DNA of 59,935 nucleotides from Candidatus Parcubacteria bacterium (GCA_021731405.1 JAKFXN010000006.1:1-59935), one strand, 5' to 3'; positions 2,089-18,441 are shown, numbered from the stretch's first letter. Program-made: numbers and translations. Notes: generated by a model not told the origin, from the sequence alone.

Positions 2089-3417
2089 TTACACTTCACC
2101 CAATTCAATTTGCTTTTGTTTGAGACAGATTCCACCTTTAAAGCAGGAAATGATTTCTCTCTTTTCCTCAATCGAACCTTCTTTCAGTAAAAACTTTATA
2201 TATCTTTTAACATCAATATCACCTACCTCAAAGTTAAGGTCTTGTCCTAGTAGCGACGCTTCGAACTTCTTGTATCTAGTCACTTCAGCCACAATCTGCT
2301 TTTTCACAGACAGTTCGTTCACCTCTACCTTATCCACCAGAGCTTGAAGTTGTTTGATAAGTTCTGTTTCAGAAATATAACCGCACTTGCAGTTCTTATC
2401 CCTCGCCTTGGTACATCCATAGTAGACATGAGCATTAACTTTGCCATTTTTAAGCTTCTTATACTTCTCATCAGCACTAATACCAGAACCACATAAGCCA
2501 CAGGCCATCAATCTAGTAAACGCAAATTCTTTCTCTTGTCTGGTCTTCAGTTCATTTCCTTTAAGTTGAGATTGAACCATTTCAAACAACTCTTTCGAGA
2601 TAAGTGGTTCATGTTTGCCTTTGTACCAGTTACCAGAGTTTTTCGGATACTCAAACTCACCATGATAGAAATTATTTTCAAGAAGTTTATAAATATTACC
2701 CAGACTTAAGTGCTTCTTTCCACAAGCAGTTCGGAAATTTAAATCATGTCTCAGCCAGTGATACACCTTCCTACCACTCCACCTCTCGTATGCTACCTTC
2801 TCAAATACCTTCTTTATGGTTTCTCCTCGTTCTGGGTCTATATAACACTCACACTTTCTATCGTTACGGATTTCTTTGAGATACCCTGTTGGAGCTGGTG
2901 CAGGCCACAGGCCCATCTCAACTCTCGTTTTAAGTCCTCGCTTTACATTGATACTTTTATTGTCGTTCTCAAGTTTAGCTTGTGAACAAAGAATCATCAG
3001 AAGGAACTTTTCATTTGGAGAGTTTTTGAAGTGTTGTCCATGAGTGCGTATTTCCATCAAAAGTTTCTGGTCCATTAAATCGACGATACTCCCTAAGTCA
3101 CCAGCATTACGGGAAAGTCTATCGGGTGCCCAGGTGAGAATGCCATTAAATTTTCCTCGTCGTACGTCCTCAAGTATTTCTTTGTACACTGGTCGCTGTC
3201 CAGACTCTTTGGCGGAATGTGACTCTCGCCGTATTTCAGCCACATCTAATCCATCACGTTCAGCTAACTCTAGCATCTCCTTTACTTGGGAATCAATTGA
3301 AAGAACTTGGCGCTCTTCAGACTCGGTTGATTTGCGAGCATAGAGTACATACCTAATCTTTTCAGGCATGACTATTTGCTCGGTTTTTATGCGGGCTGAT
3401 GTATATGTTTCCATCAT
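2089..3417 (-). CDS. Large serine recombinase (resolvase + recombinase + Zn ribbon)
   Basis: YVLYARKSTE catalytic motif, DRLSRN, CGLCGSG...YYGC...C Zn ribbon. Start probably 3417 or 3369. Confidence 0.93.
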   Translation of the reverse strand: MMETYTSARIKTEQIVMPEKIRYVLYARKSTESEERQVLSIDSQVKEMLELAERDGLDVAEIRRESHSAKESGQRPVYKEILEDVRRGKFNGILTWAPDRLSRNAGDLGSIVDLMDQKLLMEIRTHGQHFKNSPNEKFLLMILCSQAKLENDNKSINVKRGLKTRVEMGLWPAPAPTGYLKEIRNDRKCECYIDPERGETIKKVFEKVAYERWSGRKVYHWLRHDLNFRTACGKKHLSLGNIYKLLENNFYHGEFEYPKNSGNWYKGKHEPLISKELFEMVQSQLKGNELKTRQEKEFAFTRLMACGLCGSGISADEKYKKLKNGKVNAHVYYGCTKARDKNCKCGYISETELIKQLQALVDKVEVNELSVKKQIVAEVTRYKKFEASLLGQDLNFEVGDIDVKRYIKFLLKEGSIEEKREIISCFKGGICLKQKQIELGEV

Positions 3418-3522
3418 TAATTGATGACAGAACCGCACGAGATGTATAGCTATGCAGACTAAAGAAAACGTCACATACTCGCTTATGCGCCTTAGCAGAA
3501 GCTTAATACAGCGTTAGGATAG

Positions 3523-3551
3523 GTGCCAAATAGCGATAAATACGCTATTAT
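3523..3551 (+). promoter_or_regulatory. Sigma70-like promoter with palindromic operator in the spacer
   Basis: GTGCCA (3523-28), 17 nt, TATTAT (3546-51); inverted repeat AATAGCG/CGCTATT at 3529-35 and 3543-49. Confidence 0.5.
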
Positions 3552-3557
3552 GTTCAT

Positions 3558-3752
3558 TACAAATCAGACCTAACCCGACAGCTTTTGCTGGCGGTATGGT
3601 CGCAAATACCGTCCAAAGTAAACAACTCCTAATCAGAGCTACTTTGGACGGTCATATCGGGAAACTGGTATGGGTATTGCCTCACGGGGCGTATCGGCCT
3701 GGTTAGGAGCTTTTTGCTACCTGACCGACCACTCTAAATCCGTCCAAAAAAT
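3558..3752 (+). ncRNA. Candidate structured leader/ncRNA with H-type pseudoknot
   Basis: 13-bp stem 3608-20/3640-52; its loop 3626-36 pairs with 3699-3709; GAAA-capped and G-U-rich hairpins lie in between. Confidence 0.55.
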
Positions 3753-4475
3753 ATGAATACACAAAACCCCTCCCCCGAGGAGGTCGCTTTACTTATAAGT
3801 AAGCGTCTTAAAAAGTTCTGGGGTTACGGTAACCTCAAAGGCTCAGTTTGGCTTATCGGTATGGAAGAAGGTATCGGAGCTGACGAAGACTTTCCCATTA
3901 CTCGCTTTGAATCAACAAGTGGTAAGGAAGTAGTAGACATCACCTACAATACTGCCGAAGACCATAATCGTTGGTTTAAAACTGGAGCCGCAACTCAACG
4001 CACGTGGCGACCATTAATTTTTATACTGCTTTATCAAAAGCTCGGTCGTGTCCCGACACTCGAAGAGATTCGTGACTACCAAATCAATCACTTTGGTCGA
4101 AGAAATTCAGACCACGCCATTTTAGAATTAATGCCCTTACCCGCACGTTCACTCAAAGCTTCCGATTGGATATACAGTGACGTACAACTTAAAGGACTTA
4201 AGAATCGCAAGGAATATCTGGCGACATATAAACCAGAGCGAGTAAAACTTCTGCAAGCACTTATAGAAAAACACCAACCGAAGTTGGTGCTATTCTATTC
4301 ACGAAGCTATCTCCCTGACTGGCAATCAATTGTTCCTAAAACACTTAAGGAAGTGATTCCTGAGAAACTGCATATCGCTAAGGTTGGTAATACTAACTAC
4401 GCTGTGACCGCTCATCCTGTCAGTCATGGACTATCGACCAAAGACTGGGAAATGATTGCTCGCAAAGTACTTTAG
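3753..4475 (+). CDS. Hypothetical protein, probable uracil-DNA-glycosylase-superfamily fold
   Basis: FWGYGNLKGSVWLIGMEEG (motif-A-like), LELMPLPA, C-terminal HPVSHG (motif-B-like); 240 aa. Confidence 0.5.
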   Translation: MNTQNPSPEEVALLISKRLKKFWGYGNLKGSVWLIGMEEGIGADEDFPITRFESTSGKEVVDITYNTAEDHNRWFKTGAATQRTWRPLIFILLYQKLGRVPTLEEIRDYQINHFGRRNSDHAILELMPLPARSLKASDWIYSDVQLKGLKNRKEYLATYKPERVKLLQALIEKHQPKLVLFYSRSYLPDWQSIVPKTLKEVIPEKLHIAKVGNTNYAVTAHPVSHGLSTKDWEMIARKVL

Positions 4476-4837
4476 TTGTCATCAAGATCATCGACATAAA
4501 CCATATCAATATTCGTAATGACTGCGGGCTGATTGGTTTTGAACGACATCTTCTCTCTTGGCTTGATATACGACTTTTTGTTGTTATTAAGCCAGTATTC
4601 AATCGCTCGCAGATTACCGTTGTTAATGTGAGCAATCAGCTTACTCTCAGCTAAGTCGCTAACTGAATTAACGCCGTGCTGCATTGCCTCTTCAACTGCC
4701 TGCTTGAACTCAGAATCATCCTTGAGCCACGTATAGAACGTATTACGCGCAATCCCGACTCTCTCACAGGCAATTGAAACATTTGGCACACTACGGAGCT
4801 GTTCGAGTATCGGTGCTTGTTTGCGGGATTTCTTCAT
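4472..4837 (-). CDS. Phage-type HTH protein (phBC6A51 / terminase-small-subunit-like)
   Basis: NVSIACERVGIARNTFYTWLKDDSEF...DLAESKL...GNLRAIEYWL. Confidence 0.7.
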   Translation of the reverse strand: MKKSRKQAPILEQLRSVPNVSIACERVGIARNTFYTWLKDDSEFKQAVEEAMQHGVNSVSDLAESKLIAHINNGNLRAIEYWLNNNKKSYIKPREKMSFKTNQPAVITNIDMVYVDDLDDN

Positions 4838-6095
4838 CTGGTTTGATGACGACTGCCTTTTGTCCTGTTAATGCTTCAAAGCGTTTGATAGTCAGGTCAC
4901 AAAACGCTGGTTCAAGTTCTACTGCAAACACTAGTCGCTTGAGTCCTTCAGCCGCTATAAGCGTACTGCCCGAACCAGAGAAGCTATCAAGAATGATTTG
5001 TCCTTGCTTAGTACAACGTCGAATCGCTTTCTCATACAGCTCAGGTGGTTTCATCGTACTGTGTTCGTACTCAGAGCCCGGGAGACGCTTTATGAGCCAT
5101 AAATCAAGATTGTTGAGCATTTCGTTACCCGTACCAGCTTCAAGATTCATCACTTCATTGAGCTTGGTATGTGGCTTTGTAAGAGCTGGCTTACCTTTGA
5201 CTCCATACACGCACGGTTCGTAGCATTTATTGAAAGCCACACCTGGGGTCGGATTGTGTCCGTTTTTAACCCACAGACAGACTCGCTTGTTTTGAATACC
5301 AAGCTCGTGATACAGCGTCTGAATTGCCCATATATACACTTGGTCGCACCAGTAAAAGACGTGAGTGTCTGGCTTGGTGAATGGTAGAGCGGCTACCATG
5401 CTGGCTCGAAGAAACGCAACGTACTCATTATCCGATTTACTGTCGTTCACAGTTCCGCCGTACGACTGTTTGCCACCAATACCTTTGTTGTAGTCAATGG
5501 AAATGTTATAGATTGGATCACTCATGATCATATCAGCTCGTTCATCACCACATAGGCGAGCAATCGTTTCTGGTTTAGTGGAGTCACCACAGATAAGGCG
5601 GTGTTCTCCGAGCAAGATGAGGTCACCCAGCTTCGTGACTGGCTTCTTATCTTTTTTCTTCGGTTCAACAAAATCAAAGGCTTCTTGTTTTGGCTTTCTA
5701 TCCCAAAGTCCATCAAGTGCTTTGTAGTCGAAGCCGACATCGAGGAGTAAAGTGAGTTCAATTGCTTCAAGCTTCTCGTAGTCAAACTCACCAGTGTTCT
5801 TATTTAAACGTAAATTGAGTTCCTTTTCTCGCTCAACGTCATTCATCGTAATGAAGATAACTGGCACCTCTTTGTACCCAAGTGACTTTGCGACTTCAAG
5901 GCGGAAGTGTCCTGCAATCAGAATACTTTCCCGCCCTTTGGCGTTATTACATATAAGCGGGTCAACCATACCGAATCGTTCGATACTGGTCTTGAGTTGT
6001 TCTGTCTGCTCCTTCGTGTGTTTGCGGGGGTTGTACTCATTGGGGTTAATGGTTTCAATGGGTACGTAGGTTACGGCAAGAGAATCGGGTTTCAT
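4791..6095 (-). CDS. ParB/Srx N-terminal domain fused to an N4/N6 DNA methyltransferase (beta class)
   Basis: YNPRKH...GMVDPL...AGHFRL ParB domain; SDPIY (motif IV variant); HSTMKP; ILDSFSGSGST SAM-binding motif. Confidence 0.9.
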   Translation of the reverse strand: MKPDSLAVTYVPIETINPNEYNPRKHTKEQTEQLKTSIERFGMVDPLICNNAKGRESILIAGHFRLEVAKSLGYKEVPVIFITMNDVEREKELNLRLNKNTGEFDYEKLEAIELTLLLDVGFDYKALDGLWDRKPKQEAFDFVEPKKKDKKPVTKLGDLILLGEHRLICGDSTKPETIARLCGDERADMIMSDPIYNISIDYNKGIGGKQSYGGTVNDSKSDNEYVAFLRASMVAALPFTKPDTHVFYWCDQVYIWAIQTLYHELGIQNKRVCLWVKNGHNPTPGVAFNKCYEPCVYGVKGKPALTKPHTKLNEVMNLEAGTGNEMLNNLDLWLIKRLPGSEYEHSTMKPPELYEKAIRRCTKQGQIILDSFSGSGSTLIAAEGLKRLVFAVELEPAFCDLTIKRFEALTGQKAVVIKPDEEIPQTSTDTRTAP

Positions 6096-7128: not shown

Positions 7129-7908
7129 ATGTTAGGAGCAATTATTGGCGATATAGCGGGATCTACTCGTGAATTTGAACAAGACAAGTCTTTTCCGACT
7201 GAGCTATTTCCTGTCGGAAGCCATATCACTGACGATACCATCCTAACCCTTGCTACTGCCGAAGCCTTACTCCGTCGAAACGAAAGCATTACCTACGGTG
7301 ACATGTATTACCAATATGCTAATCGCTATCAAGGGAGCCAATACAGTTACGGTGATAGATTCCTGACTTGGGTAAAGCAATCACGACCAAACAGCCTTGC
7401 TCCCGCTTATAACAGTCTTGGTAATGGTTCAGCTATGCGTGTTGCTCCGATTGGTTGGTTCTTCAGGACTCTAGAAGAGACTCGTGCGGAAGCTAGGCTA
7501 TCCGCTATACCGACCCACAATCACCCTGAGGGAATAAAAGGTGCTGAAGCAGTAGCGAGTGCCATCTTTCTTGCTCGTACTGGTAGCACCAAAGACGAGA
7601 TTAAAGAATACTTAGAAACTGAGTTCGGCTATCGTCTCAGTCGCTACTACGAAGATGTACGTGATGATGCGTATTTTCTTGAAACTTGTCCTGAGAGTGT
7701 AGAAGAAGCGATTATTGCTTTCTTATCTTCTAAGTCATTTGAAGACGCTATCTACAAAGCAATTGCTTTGGGCGGTGATGCTGACACACAGGCGAGTATC
7801 GCAGGTGCGATAGCTGAAGCGTTTTACTTACCCCAACATACACTAGAGAACGTCAGAACTCATCTCACACCTGAACAAGTGCCGATAATAGAAGCGATTT
7901 TAATTTGA
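7129..7908 (+). CDS. ADP-ribosylglycohydrolase (ARH/DraG family)
   Basis: GAIIGDIAG, TDDT, SLGNGSAMR and GGDADT metal-binding motifs. Confidence 0.92.
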   Translation: MLGAIIGDIAGSTREFEQDKSFPTELFPVGSHITDDTILTLATAEALLRRNESITYGDMYYQYANRYQGSQYSYGDRFLTWVKQSRPNSLAPAYNSLGNGSAMRVAPIGWFFRTLEETRAEARLSAIPTHNHPEGIKGAEAVASAIFLARTGSTKDEIKEYLETEFGYRLSRYYEDVRDDAYFLETCPESVEEAIIAFLSSKSFEDAIYKAIALGGDADTQASIAGAIAEAFYLPQHTLENVRTHLTPEQVPIIEAILI

Positions 7909-18316: not shown

Positions 18317-18389
18317 GCGCCTATAGCTCAGCCGGTAGAGCAGCTCCCTTTTAAGGAGAAGGTCCCAGGTTCGATCCCTGGTGGGCGCA
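18317..18389 (+). tRNA. tRNA-Lys (anticodon TTT), CCA not encoded
   Basis: Cloverleaf: GCGCCTA/TGGGCGC acceptor, GCTC/GAGC D-stem, CT-TTT-AA loop, CCAGG-TTCGATC-CCTGG T-arm. Confidence 0.97.
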
Positions 18390-18441
18390 CAAATAAAAAC
18401 ACACCCATCAAGGGTGTGTTTTTATTTGTGCGCCCACCAGG
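18377..18441. repeat. 30-bp perfect inverted repeat that includes the tRNA 3' end (also a bidirectional terminator)
   Basis: 18377-18406 pairs with 18412-18441, 5-nt loop. Confidence 0.95.

Follow-up and report, generated by a model that had tools for sequence, protein, structure and literature searches.

Between a divergent gene for a large serine recombinase and an open reading frame (ORF) of 240 aa, a Parcubacteria genome carries about 195 nt that were predicted to form a pseudoknotted regulatory RNA with a switch-like alternative pairing. The questions raised by this locus are what the RNA is, whether its proposed pairings are real, and what an RNA in this position might do. We analysed the whole stretch of DNA available to us, here called the window, which is 59,935 nt long, and all coordinates are counted from its first letter.

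A LOOT RNA beside a serine recombinase gene

We find that the RNA is a member of the LOOT family (Rfam RF03000). Infernal cmscan matched positions 3567–3695 of the plus strand with 75 bits and E 5.8e-14, the gathering score being 46.4. The match is full-length, covering model positions 1–121 of 121, it occurs on the plus strand only, and searches of the whole window and of the whole genome returned the same single LOOT match. The original prediction had called the RNA undescribed and had recognised no Rfam family in it; this was wrong, because the scan against Rfam yields RF03000. The copy is new, but the finding is less new than first held because the family is already catalogued.

LOOT originates from a survey of 224 candidates, as a metagenomic motif (Weinberg et al., 2017; PMC5737381), and is presented in Rfam 14 as a 'metagenomic-based RNA' (PMC7779021). 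Its roughly 43 base pairs, arranged in six helices, are described as unusually rich in cross-covariations (Rivas, 2020; PMC7657543), and two covarying pairs were added in Rfam 15. In the literature searched we found no function, host, gene context or recombinase link for LOOT. Rfam classes the family as sRNA (trans-acting), which we counted against a reading as a cis-acting leader. In the cmscan alignment the RF03000 model consists of six nested helices and stops at P4 (3695), and the 3′ strand of the pseudoknot, the U tail, P5 and the copy of the P2 arm discussed below all lie outside it. The helices of the consensus, namely a two-part P1, a long P2, a GNRA-capped P3 and P4, are present in the window, and the cmscan alignment and an independent fold concur on them. 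The plus strand folds at −70.6 kcal/mol (z = −5.2), a value that 0 of 200 shuffles equalled, while the fold of the minus strand is weaker (z = −3.8). The locus is made up of the following features.

2089–3474, minus strand: large serine recombinase gene (Pfam Resolvase, Recombinase and Zn_ribbon_recom), divergent from LOOT
3523–3551, plus strand: LOOT promoter from a consensus scan, with −35 box GTGCCA (3523–3528), a 17-nt spacer and −10 box TATTAT (3546–3551)
3529–3549, no strand assigned: palindrome AATAGCG-N7-CGCTATT within the promoter spacer, its right arm entering the −10 box
3567–3601, plus strand: P1, from the fold, in which GACC/GGUC closes an internal loop of CCUAAC (3569–3574) and UAUGG (3595–3599), followed by a variable hairpin
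3608–3652, plus strand: P2, a perfect 13-bp stem (3608–3620/3640–3652) with ACCGTCCAAAGTA as its 5′ arm and a 19-nt loop, L2 (3621–3639)
3653–3672, plus strand: P3, an 8-bp hairpin with an invariant GAAA loop (3661–3664)
3673–3695, plus strand: P4, a G-U-rich hairpin of variable length
3626–3636 with 3699–3709, plus strand: pseudoknot of 11 bp, one of them G-U, between CTCCTAATCAG in L2 and CTGGTTAGGAG
3710–3718, plus strand: conserved C-UUUUU-G tail, T and G invariant
3700–3710 with 3716–3727, plus strand: P5, an alternative hairpin that engages the pseudoknot 3′ strand and has the U run for its loop, present in the minimum-energy fold
3740–3748, plus strand: arm copy CCGTCCAAA, a direct repeat of the P2 5′ arm that is separated by 4 nt from the ATG at 3753
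3753–4475, plus strand: cargo gene of 240 aa with no recognisable family

Direct reading of the sequence located every element that had been named in the original prediction, including the 13-bp stem (3608–3652), the GAAA hairpin (3653–3672), the G-U-rich hairpin (3673–3695) and an upstream promoter (3523–3551) with a palindrome in its spacer (3529–3549). Its broader view, that this is a structured RNA encoded by an element and made from the plus strand under its own promoter, is supported as well. From this promoter, transcription of LOOT would start at about 3558–3562. The −10 box and the ACAACTGAATA-like motif that follows it are kept upstream of LOOT in relatives. The arms of the palindrome vary among relatives with their symmetry kept (TAGCG/CGCTA, TACCA/TGGTA, TAGCTCA/TGAGCTA), and the palindrome may be an operator, or else a pair of divergent −10 boxes set back to back. 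A helix between the ACAACTGAATA-like motif and the U tail was considered and rejected, its energy being −4.7 kcal/mol with the locus's own partner and −4.5 kcal/mol with permuted ones.

The nearest NCBIfam matches of the recombinase are CcrB and XisF, both far under their cut-offs. A search of genome contigs returned 393 relatives of the protein, and its close relatives are found in metagenome-assembled genomes (MAGs) labelled Paceibacterota, Parcubacteria or Patescibacteria. No tRNA gene was found in the window next to the 3′ end of the recombinase gene. The linkage with LOOT holds in both directions. A gene for this recombinase lies 0.15–7.4 kb from about 24 of the 31 LOOT copies in relatives, nearly always upstream and divergent, and of the 80 loci retrieved with the recombinase protein, 43 contain LOOT, with 36 copies placed directly upstream and divergent and seven directly downstream on the same strand. 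Those seven have a promoter of their own too. No other protein gene was found to be a consistent neighbour of LOOT.

The host genome is a Paceibacteria (Patescibacteria, CPR) MAG of 903 kb and 99.9% completeness, of which the window is contig 6, and the window DNA was also found in drinking-water and activated-carbon metagenomes. LOOT was present in 23 of the 61 relatives, where a genome has at most four copies, and in 77 of 401 genomes drawn evenly across the phylum (68 of 320 genera); it was found in none of 14 control genomes. A phage database held no DNA similar to the window. A sequence pattern for LOOT hit 13 IMG/VR contigs, eight of which were confirmed as LOOT.

Transcription of the RNA, as predicted, is borne out by wastewater metatranscriptomes, from which three assembled contigs, carrying neither strand nor end information, cover LOOT. 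One spans 3576–3749 at a depth of 10.7; another spans 3597–3749 at a depth of 18.5; and a third, from a relative, spans 3612–3842 at a depth of 11.4 and enters the ORF. All start at 3576 or later, and on the recombinase side (3350–3570) none of the three metatranscriptomes gave a contig. Because of these spans we conclude that the RNA is made, that it crosses the U run (3716), to reach 3749 or 3842, and that it at least sometimes enters the ORF. The depth over the ORF was much lower or nil in two of the three runs, and at 3749, where two of the contigs end, the DNA assembly graph has a branch point. Two further runs (X30 and X31), labelled miRNA-Seq, were left out as RNA evidence, their contigs being longer than 100 kb and effectively DNA, and runs X11–X15 gave nothing on LOOT expression.

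Covarying helices and a pseudoknot

The most conserved parts of the nested fold lie in P1 and P3. In the internal loop of P1, C-U-A and A-U-G are invariant among 28 relatives, and across copies the loop reads CCUAA(C/A) opposite (U/C)AUGG, the last pair being non-standard; the GAAA loop of P3 is likewise invariant. The combination CCUAAG/UAUGG is reportedly the 11-nt receptor motif for GAAA tetraloops (Costa and Michel, 1995), to which we presume the internal loop of P1 to be akin. Judged from these sequences, the P1 loop and the GAAA loop of P3 are likely to form a tetraloop–receptor contact. P3 itself has compensatory changes in eight of eight pairs, and 98% of its alignment cells are paired.

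P2 behaves in a different way. The stem is perfect in nearly all copies, yet its sequence differs in almost every lineage, and within genomes that hold several copies the P2 sequences are all different. Its pairs across relatives total 770 Watson–Crick and 18 G-U, the latter confined to the ends of the stem, whereas in P3 and the pseudoknot G-U pairs are common at several positions. The Rfam model places an inner helix of eight pairs within P2. Here only CUC/GAG (3 bp) of it can form, and cmscan marks non-canonical pairs in it. The 5′ strand of this inner helix is also used by the pseudoknot, which covaries far better, and as the strand is common to both, the two are mutually exclusive.

The pseudoknot was the central structural claim of the original prediction, and it proves to be real. 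Given a plain MAFFT alignment of the 28 relatives, RNAalifold picked unprompted a long-range helix that joins L2 and the A-rich bases before it to the strand after P4 and the U run. In this set 93% of the pseudoknot cells are paired and 10 of 14 pairs are changed on both sides; for the structure as a whole 0 of 500 shuffles reached the score, and slid controls gave 38–47%. With 75 sequences aligned to a model made here, 95% of the cells are paired, and among 86 LOOTs found by pattern in metagenome and IMG/VR contigs the core is 98.5% paired and an A/U extension 90%. Across the three independent sequence sets, all of which show compensatory changes, the pseudoknot is thus 93–98% paired with 10–13 of 14 pairs changed on both sides, against 38–50% for slid controls.

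The extension would pair AGUAAA (3617–3622) with UUUGCU (3713–3718), for which some compensatory changes are seen, and the duplex of pseudoknot and extension has an energy of −22.9 kcal/mol. The long-range helix with the U tail looks like a terminator. A terminator scan of the plus strand found no local G+C-rich hairpin before the U run at 3696–3716, and the helix that precedes the run is the long-range one, 3626–3636 with 3699–3709. For P5, in which the 3′ strand of the pseudoknot is paired otherwise, the energies across loci are −12.5 kcal/mol with own partners and −9.5 kcal/mol with permuted ones, with values under the 5% quantile in 12 of 44 and 14 of 84 loci; we regard the support for P5 as moderate.

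A copy of the stem arm at the start of an exchangeable gene

The 3′ arm of P2 (3644–3652) is complementary both to its partner in the stem (3612–3620) and to the arm copy before the ATG (3740–3748). The copy often includes the AAAW that precedes the P2 5′ arm. An exact copy of at least 8 nt is present in 16 of 28 relatives and in 33 of 45 loci anchored by the recombinase, and in most copy-bearing loci it ends 1–7 nt before the ATG. In cross-locus controls, matches of at least 8 nt were found in 33 of 756 comparisons, all among close relatives, and matches in the opposite orientation never exceeded 6 nt in the relatives' loci. A matching copy is found in 62 loci with 40 distinct stem sequences, and whenever P2 changes, the sequence of the copy changes with it. 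Within a single stem lineage the copy is an island of identity, with a diverged spacer and unrelated ORFs. Judged from these alignments, the identity of the arm copy indicates selection and not the shared descent of one block. The pairing of the right arm of the stem with the start region, foreseen in the original prediction as a switch-like alternative, is accordingly borne out by three-way covariation in this clade.

Its distribution is restricted. In an unbiased duplex search, the P2 3′ arm ranked first among partners for the 25 nt that end at the ATG in 28 of 43 loci; in a broad set of metagenome LOOTs it did so in only 15 of 76, and an exact copy of at least 8 nt is present in just 14 of the 81 LOOTs of the broad pattern set, for which reason we reject it as a universal feature of LOOT. 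The arm copy is real and, as far as the sequences tell, under selection in the clade of the window, and because it is clade-specific it cannot be the function of the whole family.

In one LOOT subgroup the ATG is preceded by ACGCAAAA instead, which is complementary to the UUUUGCGU tail of that subgroup.

The gene behind the RNA changes from locus to locus. A co-oriented gene begins 10–50 nt past the RNA, with products that are unrelated between loci. In the window the ORF starts 37 nt past the U run; in 46 of 46 hits a same-strand ORF starts less than 140 nt past LOOT, and in 73 of 76 metagenome loci an ORF starts within 200 nt of it. The ORF of the window has no sequence match in Pfam, NCBIfam or the PDB, and the label 'UDG-like' that it had been given found no support in these searches or in BLASTP against a true UDG-family protein that is LOOT cargo elsewhere. 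Homologs of it stand behind LOOT in only two of 22 other genomes. Many of the cargo products are membrane-anchored with an N-terminal zinc ribbon, and others match restriction-enzyme N-terminal domains, a DUF4268/NucS-like nuclease, T5orf172, a UDG-family protein, a bacterial PH domain or a peptidoglycan-binding domain. Because an ORF is always close and its product varies, we take LOOT to be the leader of the first, exchangeable cargo gene beside the recombinase.

A motif resembling a Shine–Dalgarno sequence precedes only 7% of the ORFs of the host genome. Its absence is therefore a genome-wide lack, and we rejected it as a peculiarity of the genes behind LOOT. Since so few ORFs have the motif, it should be the openness of the leader that decides initiation.

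A possible two-state leader and its alternatives

We give about an even chance to the reading that LOOT here is a 5′ leader of about 195 nt with two states, in which the start codon of a swappable cargo gene of a recombinase element is either exposed or covered. The nested fold would comprise P1 to P5, the small inner helix of P2 included, with P5 (3700–3710 with 3716–3727) holding the 3′ strand of the pseudoknot; the start region would be single-stranded and the gene translatable. The knotted fold would contain the pseudoknot together with its A/U extension (3617–3622 with 3713–3718). Judging by linker lengths, the extended pseudoknot would leave no linker to P2, which would then open, and the freed 3′ arm (3644–3652) could pair with 3740–3748 and cover positions −13 to −5 of the start codon. 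Together with the U run, the knotted fold may also terminate part of the transcripts. With its GAAA loop and receptor-like loop, the RNA may fold compactly, and a protein, Mg2+ or temperature could stabilise such a fold. We infer the coupling of the two toggles, the steric exclusion and the existence of a trigger. P2, at −21.7 kcal/mol, is about 7 kcal/mol more stable than the pairing of its arm with the copy, at −14.6 kcal/mol, and is the first to form in transcription, which we counted against a switch. With the −22.9 kcal/mol of the extended pseudoknot taken into account, the nested and knotted states need not lie far apart in energy.

Several known systems invite comparison. Like a riboswitch or attenuator leader, LOOT lies in a 5′ UTR between a promoter and a close co-oriented ORF, its P2 3′ arm and pseudoknot 3′ strand each have two alternative partners, one of these pairings covers the start region, and one helix is followed by a U run. 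It differs from such leaders in having no evident ligand pocket and no leader peptide, and its terminator-like helix is long-range and encloses three other elements; a metabolite is an unlikely signal, given that the downstream genes have unrelated functions. The CI RNA of phage P4 and the c4 RNA of P1/P7 are RNAs of mobile elements with an internal segment complementary to an upstream and a downstream site of the same unit. The downstream site covers a ribosome-binding region, and the specificity sequences vary between related elements. The complementarity of the P2 3′ arm to two sites of its own transcript shares this principle with C4 antisense RNA (RF01695) and does not imply membership. 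Among the cmscan matches with E up to 10 there was none to that family, LOOT and C4 have unrelated folds, the upstream site of LOOT is the other arm of its own stem, and the genes that it would control are variable cargo, whereas those of C4 are an antirepressor or a replication operon. The bridge (seek) RNAs of IS110/IS1111 are, like LOOT, structured RNAs that adjoin a recombinase gene and have hypervariable segments. The recombinase here is however of the serine type (Resolvase/Recombinase/Zn_ribbon_recom) and the IS110 enzyme is DEDD, and the variable segments of LOOT match only their own leader and not element ends or targets, and do not track the recombinase. Within its own family, the RNA has the same six nested helices, with the two-part P1, long P2 with an inner helix, GAAA-capped P3 and P4, and departs from the RF03000 model in that the inner helix of P2 is reduced to 3 bp and shares its 5′ strand with the pseudoknot; and here the family is assigned a host phylum, a recombinase partner and a downstream gene.

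The same observations can be read in other ways. The Rfam type would fit a separate trans-acting small RNA that ends at the U run (~3716) and would be similar in kind to the phage immunity RNAs P4 CI and P1/P7 c4, with the P2 3′ arm or L2 pairing to cargo mRNA, either from the same element or from an identical one that arrives, and with the hypervariable P2 as an address that prevents cross-talk among the up to four LOOT elements of a genome. The long-range helix followed by the conserved CUUUUUG tail, the greater depth of LOOT than of the ORF in two of three metatranscriptomes, the difference of all P2 sequences within multi-copy genomes, and the A/T-rich −10-like box (TATTAA, TAAAAT) that often precedes the arm copy all agree with this. 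We nevertheless think it rather unlikely: the RNA contigs extend beyond the U run to 3749 and one runs into the ORF, the antisense segment would be locked in the perfect 13-bp stem of the free RNA, no canonical terminator hairpin was found, and the ORF is always within tens of nucleotides. It is also conceivable, if improbable in our view, that LOOT is a compact RNA with some other job, such as a protein-binding scaffold, an mRNA-stabilising 5′ cap structure, a processive antitermination element or a ribozyme, and that one clade acquired the arm copy and P5 secondarily. Its conserved nucleotides are almost all architectural (the receptor-like loop, the GAAA loop, the A and U tracts), most LOOTs of the broad set have no arm copy, and the family extends over 68 of 320 genera with unrelated cargo; yet in this clade the arm copy is under apparent selection between diverging flanks, no candidate catalytic core or binding partner is visible, and only the recombinase is consistently nearby.

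Two further readings place the function at the level of DNA or of recombination, and we give little credence to either. In one of them the P2 palindrome and its third copy would act as DNA, as operator or att half-sites, a cruciform or a single-strand origin, with the RNA fold there incidental. It was recognised from the outset that the repeats might prove to be att or operator sites conserved symmetrically on both strands. For the RNA as a whole this does not apply, as the G-U pairs of the other helices work on the plus strand only and the region is transcribed. The long stem by itself is strand-symmetric and nearly pure Watson–Crick (770 against 18 G-U) and lies 130–270 bp from the recombinase gene, and the DNA assembly graph breaks at 3609 and at 3748/9. 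The purely Watson–Crick pairing of P2 leaves a small opening for a role of this palindrome alone in DNA. Against such a role, its 40 distinct sequences could not be tracked by one protein family, and the third copy, without exception, is sense-oriented and placed at the start codon. As a site for the recombinase P2 is rejected: recombinases 94–96% identical stand beside unrelated P2 sequences and one P2 stands beside recombinases only 67% identical, and because near-identical enzymes adjoin unrelated stems, the recombinase cannot be the reader of P2. The other reading has LOOT working with the serine recombinase, as a guide, a directionality cofactor or a landing pad for gene capture, with the cargo joined at the arm copy or start codon. 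The very tight two-way linkage with one recombinase clade speaks for it, as does one LOOT lineage that is followed by different genes, the junction falling exactly at the ATG. This enzyme, however, is of an ordinary serine type with its own DNA-binding domains, there is no dyad symmetry around 3740–3755, and P2, as noted, does not track the recombinase. Further copies of the P2 arm or L2, considered as att sites or guide targets, were not found beyond chance in the 60-kb window.

Returning to the two-state leader, the pseudoknotted 3′ extension, the masking of the start codon, the host phylum and the linkage to a recombinase were not found in the literature searched and appear to be new. A more speculative extension, which we offer tentatively and consider somewhat doubtful, is that LOOT is the portable switch of serine-recombinase elements across the CPR, its hypervariable stem and start-codon copy serving as a private code that gates swapped, often defence-type, cargo. 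In the boldest form of this idea, new cargo would be joined at the start-codon copy, and the element would be an integron-like platform for capture and expression, run by a serine recombinase.

CPR bacteria mostly lack Shine–Dalgarno sequences and cannot be grown alone. LOOT, an orphan since 2017, now has a host phylum, being present in about one in five of the Patescibacteria genomes sampled, a constant partner in one clade of large serine recombinases, and a constant position as the leader of the first swappable cargo gene. It also gains a 3′ extension, with a strongly covarying pseudoknot and a putative mask for the start codon. All of these taken together turn 'function unknown' into a testable model, and LOOT would be among the few regulatory RNAs described for CPR bacteria.

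Promoter and predicted 5′ end of the LOOT RNA

Upstream of P1, the first stem of LOOT (the Rfam RF03000 RNA, window 3567-3695, + strand), and reaching its edge, lie the following features.

3529-3549, palindrome in the spacer of the LOOT promoter, also examined in the upstream regions of L001-L203, the LOOT or recombinase loci collected from relatives, metagenomes and IMG/VR
3558-3568, conserved motif (T)ACAACTGAATA, in the window TACAAATCAGA, between the -10 box and P1 in all LOOT loci

The right arm of the palindrome runs into the -10 box, GCTATTAT, and its left arm, read on the other strand, resembles a -10 box too, ATAATAGC. The arm sequences vary in many relatives, with the palindromic symmetry kept (upstream regions of L001-L203). 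On this sequence pattern, the palindrome could be an operator, or it could represent divergent, back-to-back promoters that serve the recombinase and LOOT. The conserved motif (T)ACAACTGAATA lies where the RNA is predicted to begin, and a search for pairing between it and the U tail (3710-3718) found none.

Genomic settings of LOOT

The usual layout places LOOT upstream of the recombinase gene and divergent from it. In contrast, seven recombinase loci (L061, L065, L067, L074, L075, L079 and L080) carry LOOT about 90 nt 3′ of the recombinase stop codon and on the same strand, where it retains a strong promoter of its own, TTGATA-N17-TATAAT. These seven loci fall within a LOOT subtype that has the loop UAUUGAACCCUGCGUUCAG.

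Full-length LOOT was also found on eight IMG/VR contigs classed as ‘viral’ (L112, L113, L115, L116, L118, L120, L121 and L122), which may be CPR phages or else islands that were called viral. In the window, the neighbouring genes of the island are located as follows.

4472-6095, - strand, island genes
7129-7908, + strand, island genes

The neighbours include a terminase-small-subunit-like HTH protein, a fusion of ParB-N with an N6/N4 DNA methylase, and an ADP-ribosylglycohydrolase. No tRNA was found at the 3′ end of the recombinase gene; the sole tRNA of the window is a tRNA-Lys at 18317-18390.

The repeat-bounded segment and the downstream ORF

In the bioreactor DNA assemblies X30 and X31, breaks in the contig graph coincide exactly with the point where the 5′ arm of P2, the 13-bp stem, begins (3609) and with the end of the arm copy (3748/3749), the repeat of this arm in front of the ATG at 3753. 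As the same P2-to-copy segment is connected to another P1 and to different downstream genes in these assemblies, it is a shared module bounded by two direct repeats.

The 240-aa ORF that follows (3753-4475) had been labelled UDG-like in the original prediction, a label that found no support at the sequence level, with no match in Pfam, NCBIfam or PDB; nor did BLASTP relate it to the genuine UDG-family member (PF03167) encoded 3′ of LOOT in L110. One further feature lies within the ORF.

3767-3784, hairpin CCTCC-CCCGA-GGAGG, codons 5-11 of the downstream ORF

This hairpin is followed by a T-rich run on the minus strand and was scored as terminator-like. GGAGG is present within it; the genome almost never employs Shine-Dalgarno motifs.

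Across the whole genome (G000), a Shine-Dalgarno-like GGAG, GAGG or AGGA occurs at -20 to -4 in only 7% of the long ORFs (35 of 515); this organism starts translation largely without Shine-Dalgarno motifs. A subgroup of the LOOTs lacking the arm copy (L043, L051, L054, L063, L068, L090 and L134) has ACGCAAAA(R) just 5′ of the ATG, complementary to the subgroup’s own tail, UUUUUGCGU; judged by this complementarity, the pair looks like an alternative means of linking the start region to the LOOT RNA.
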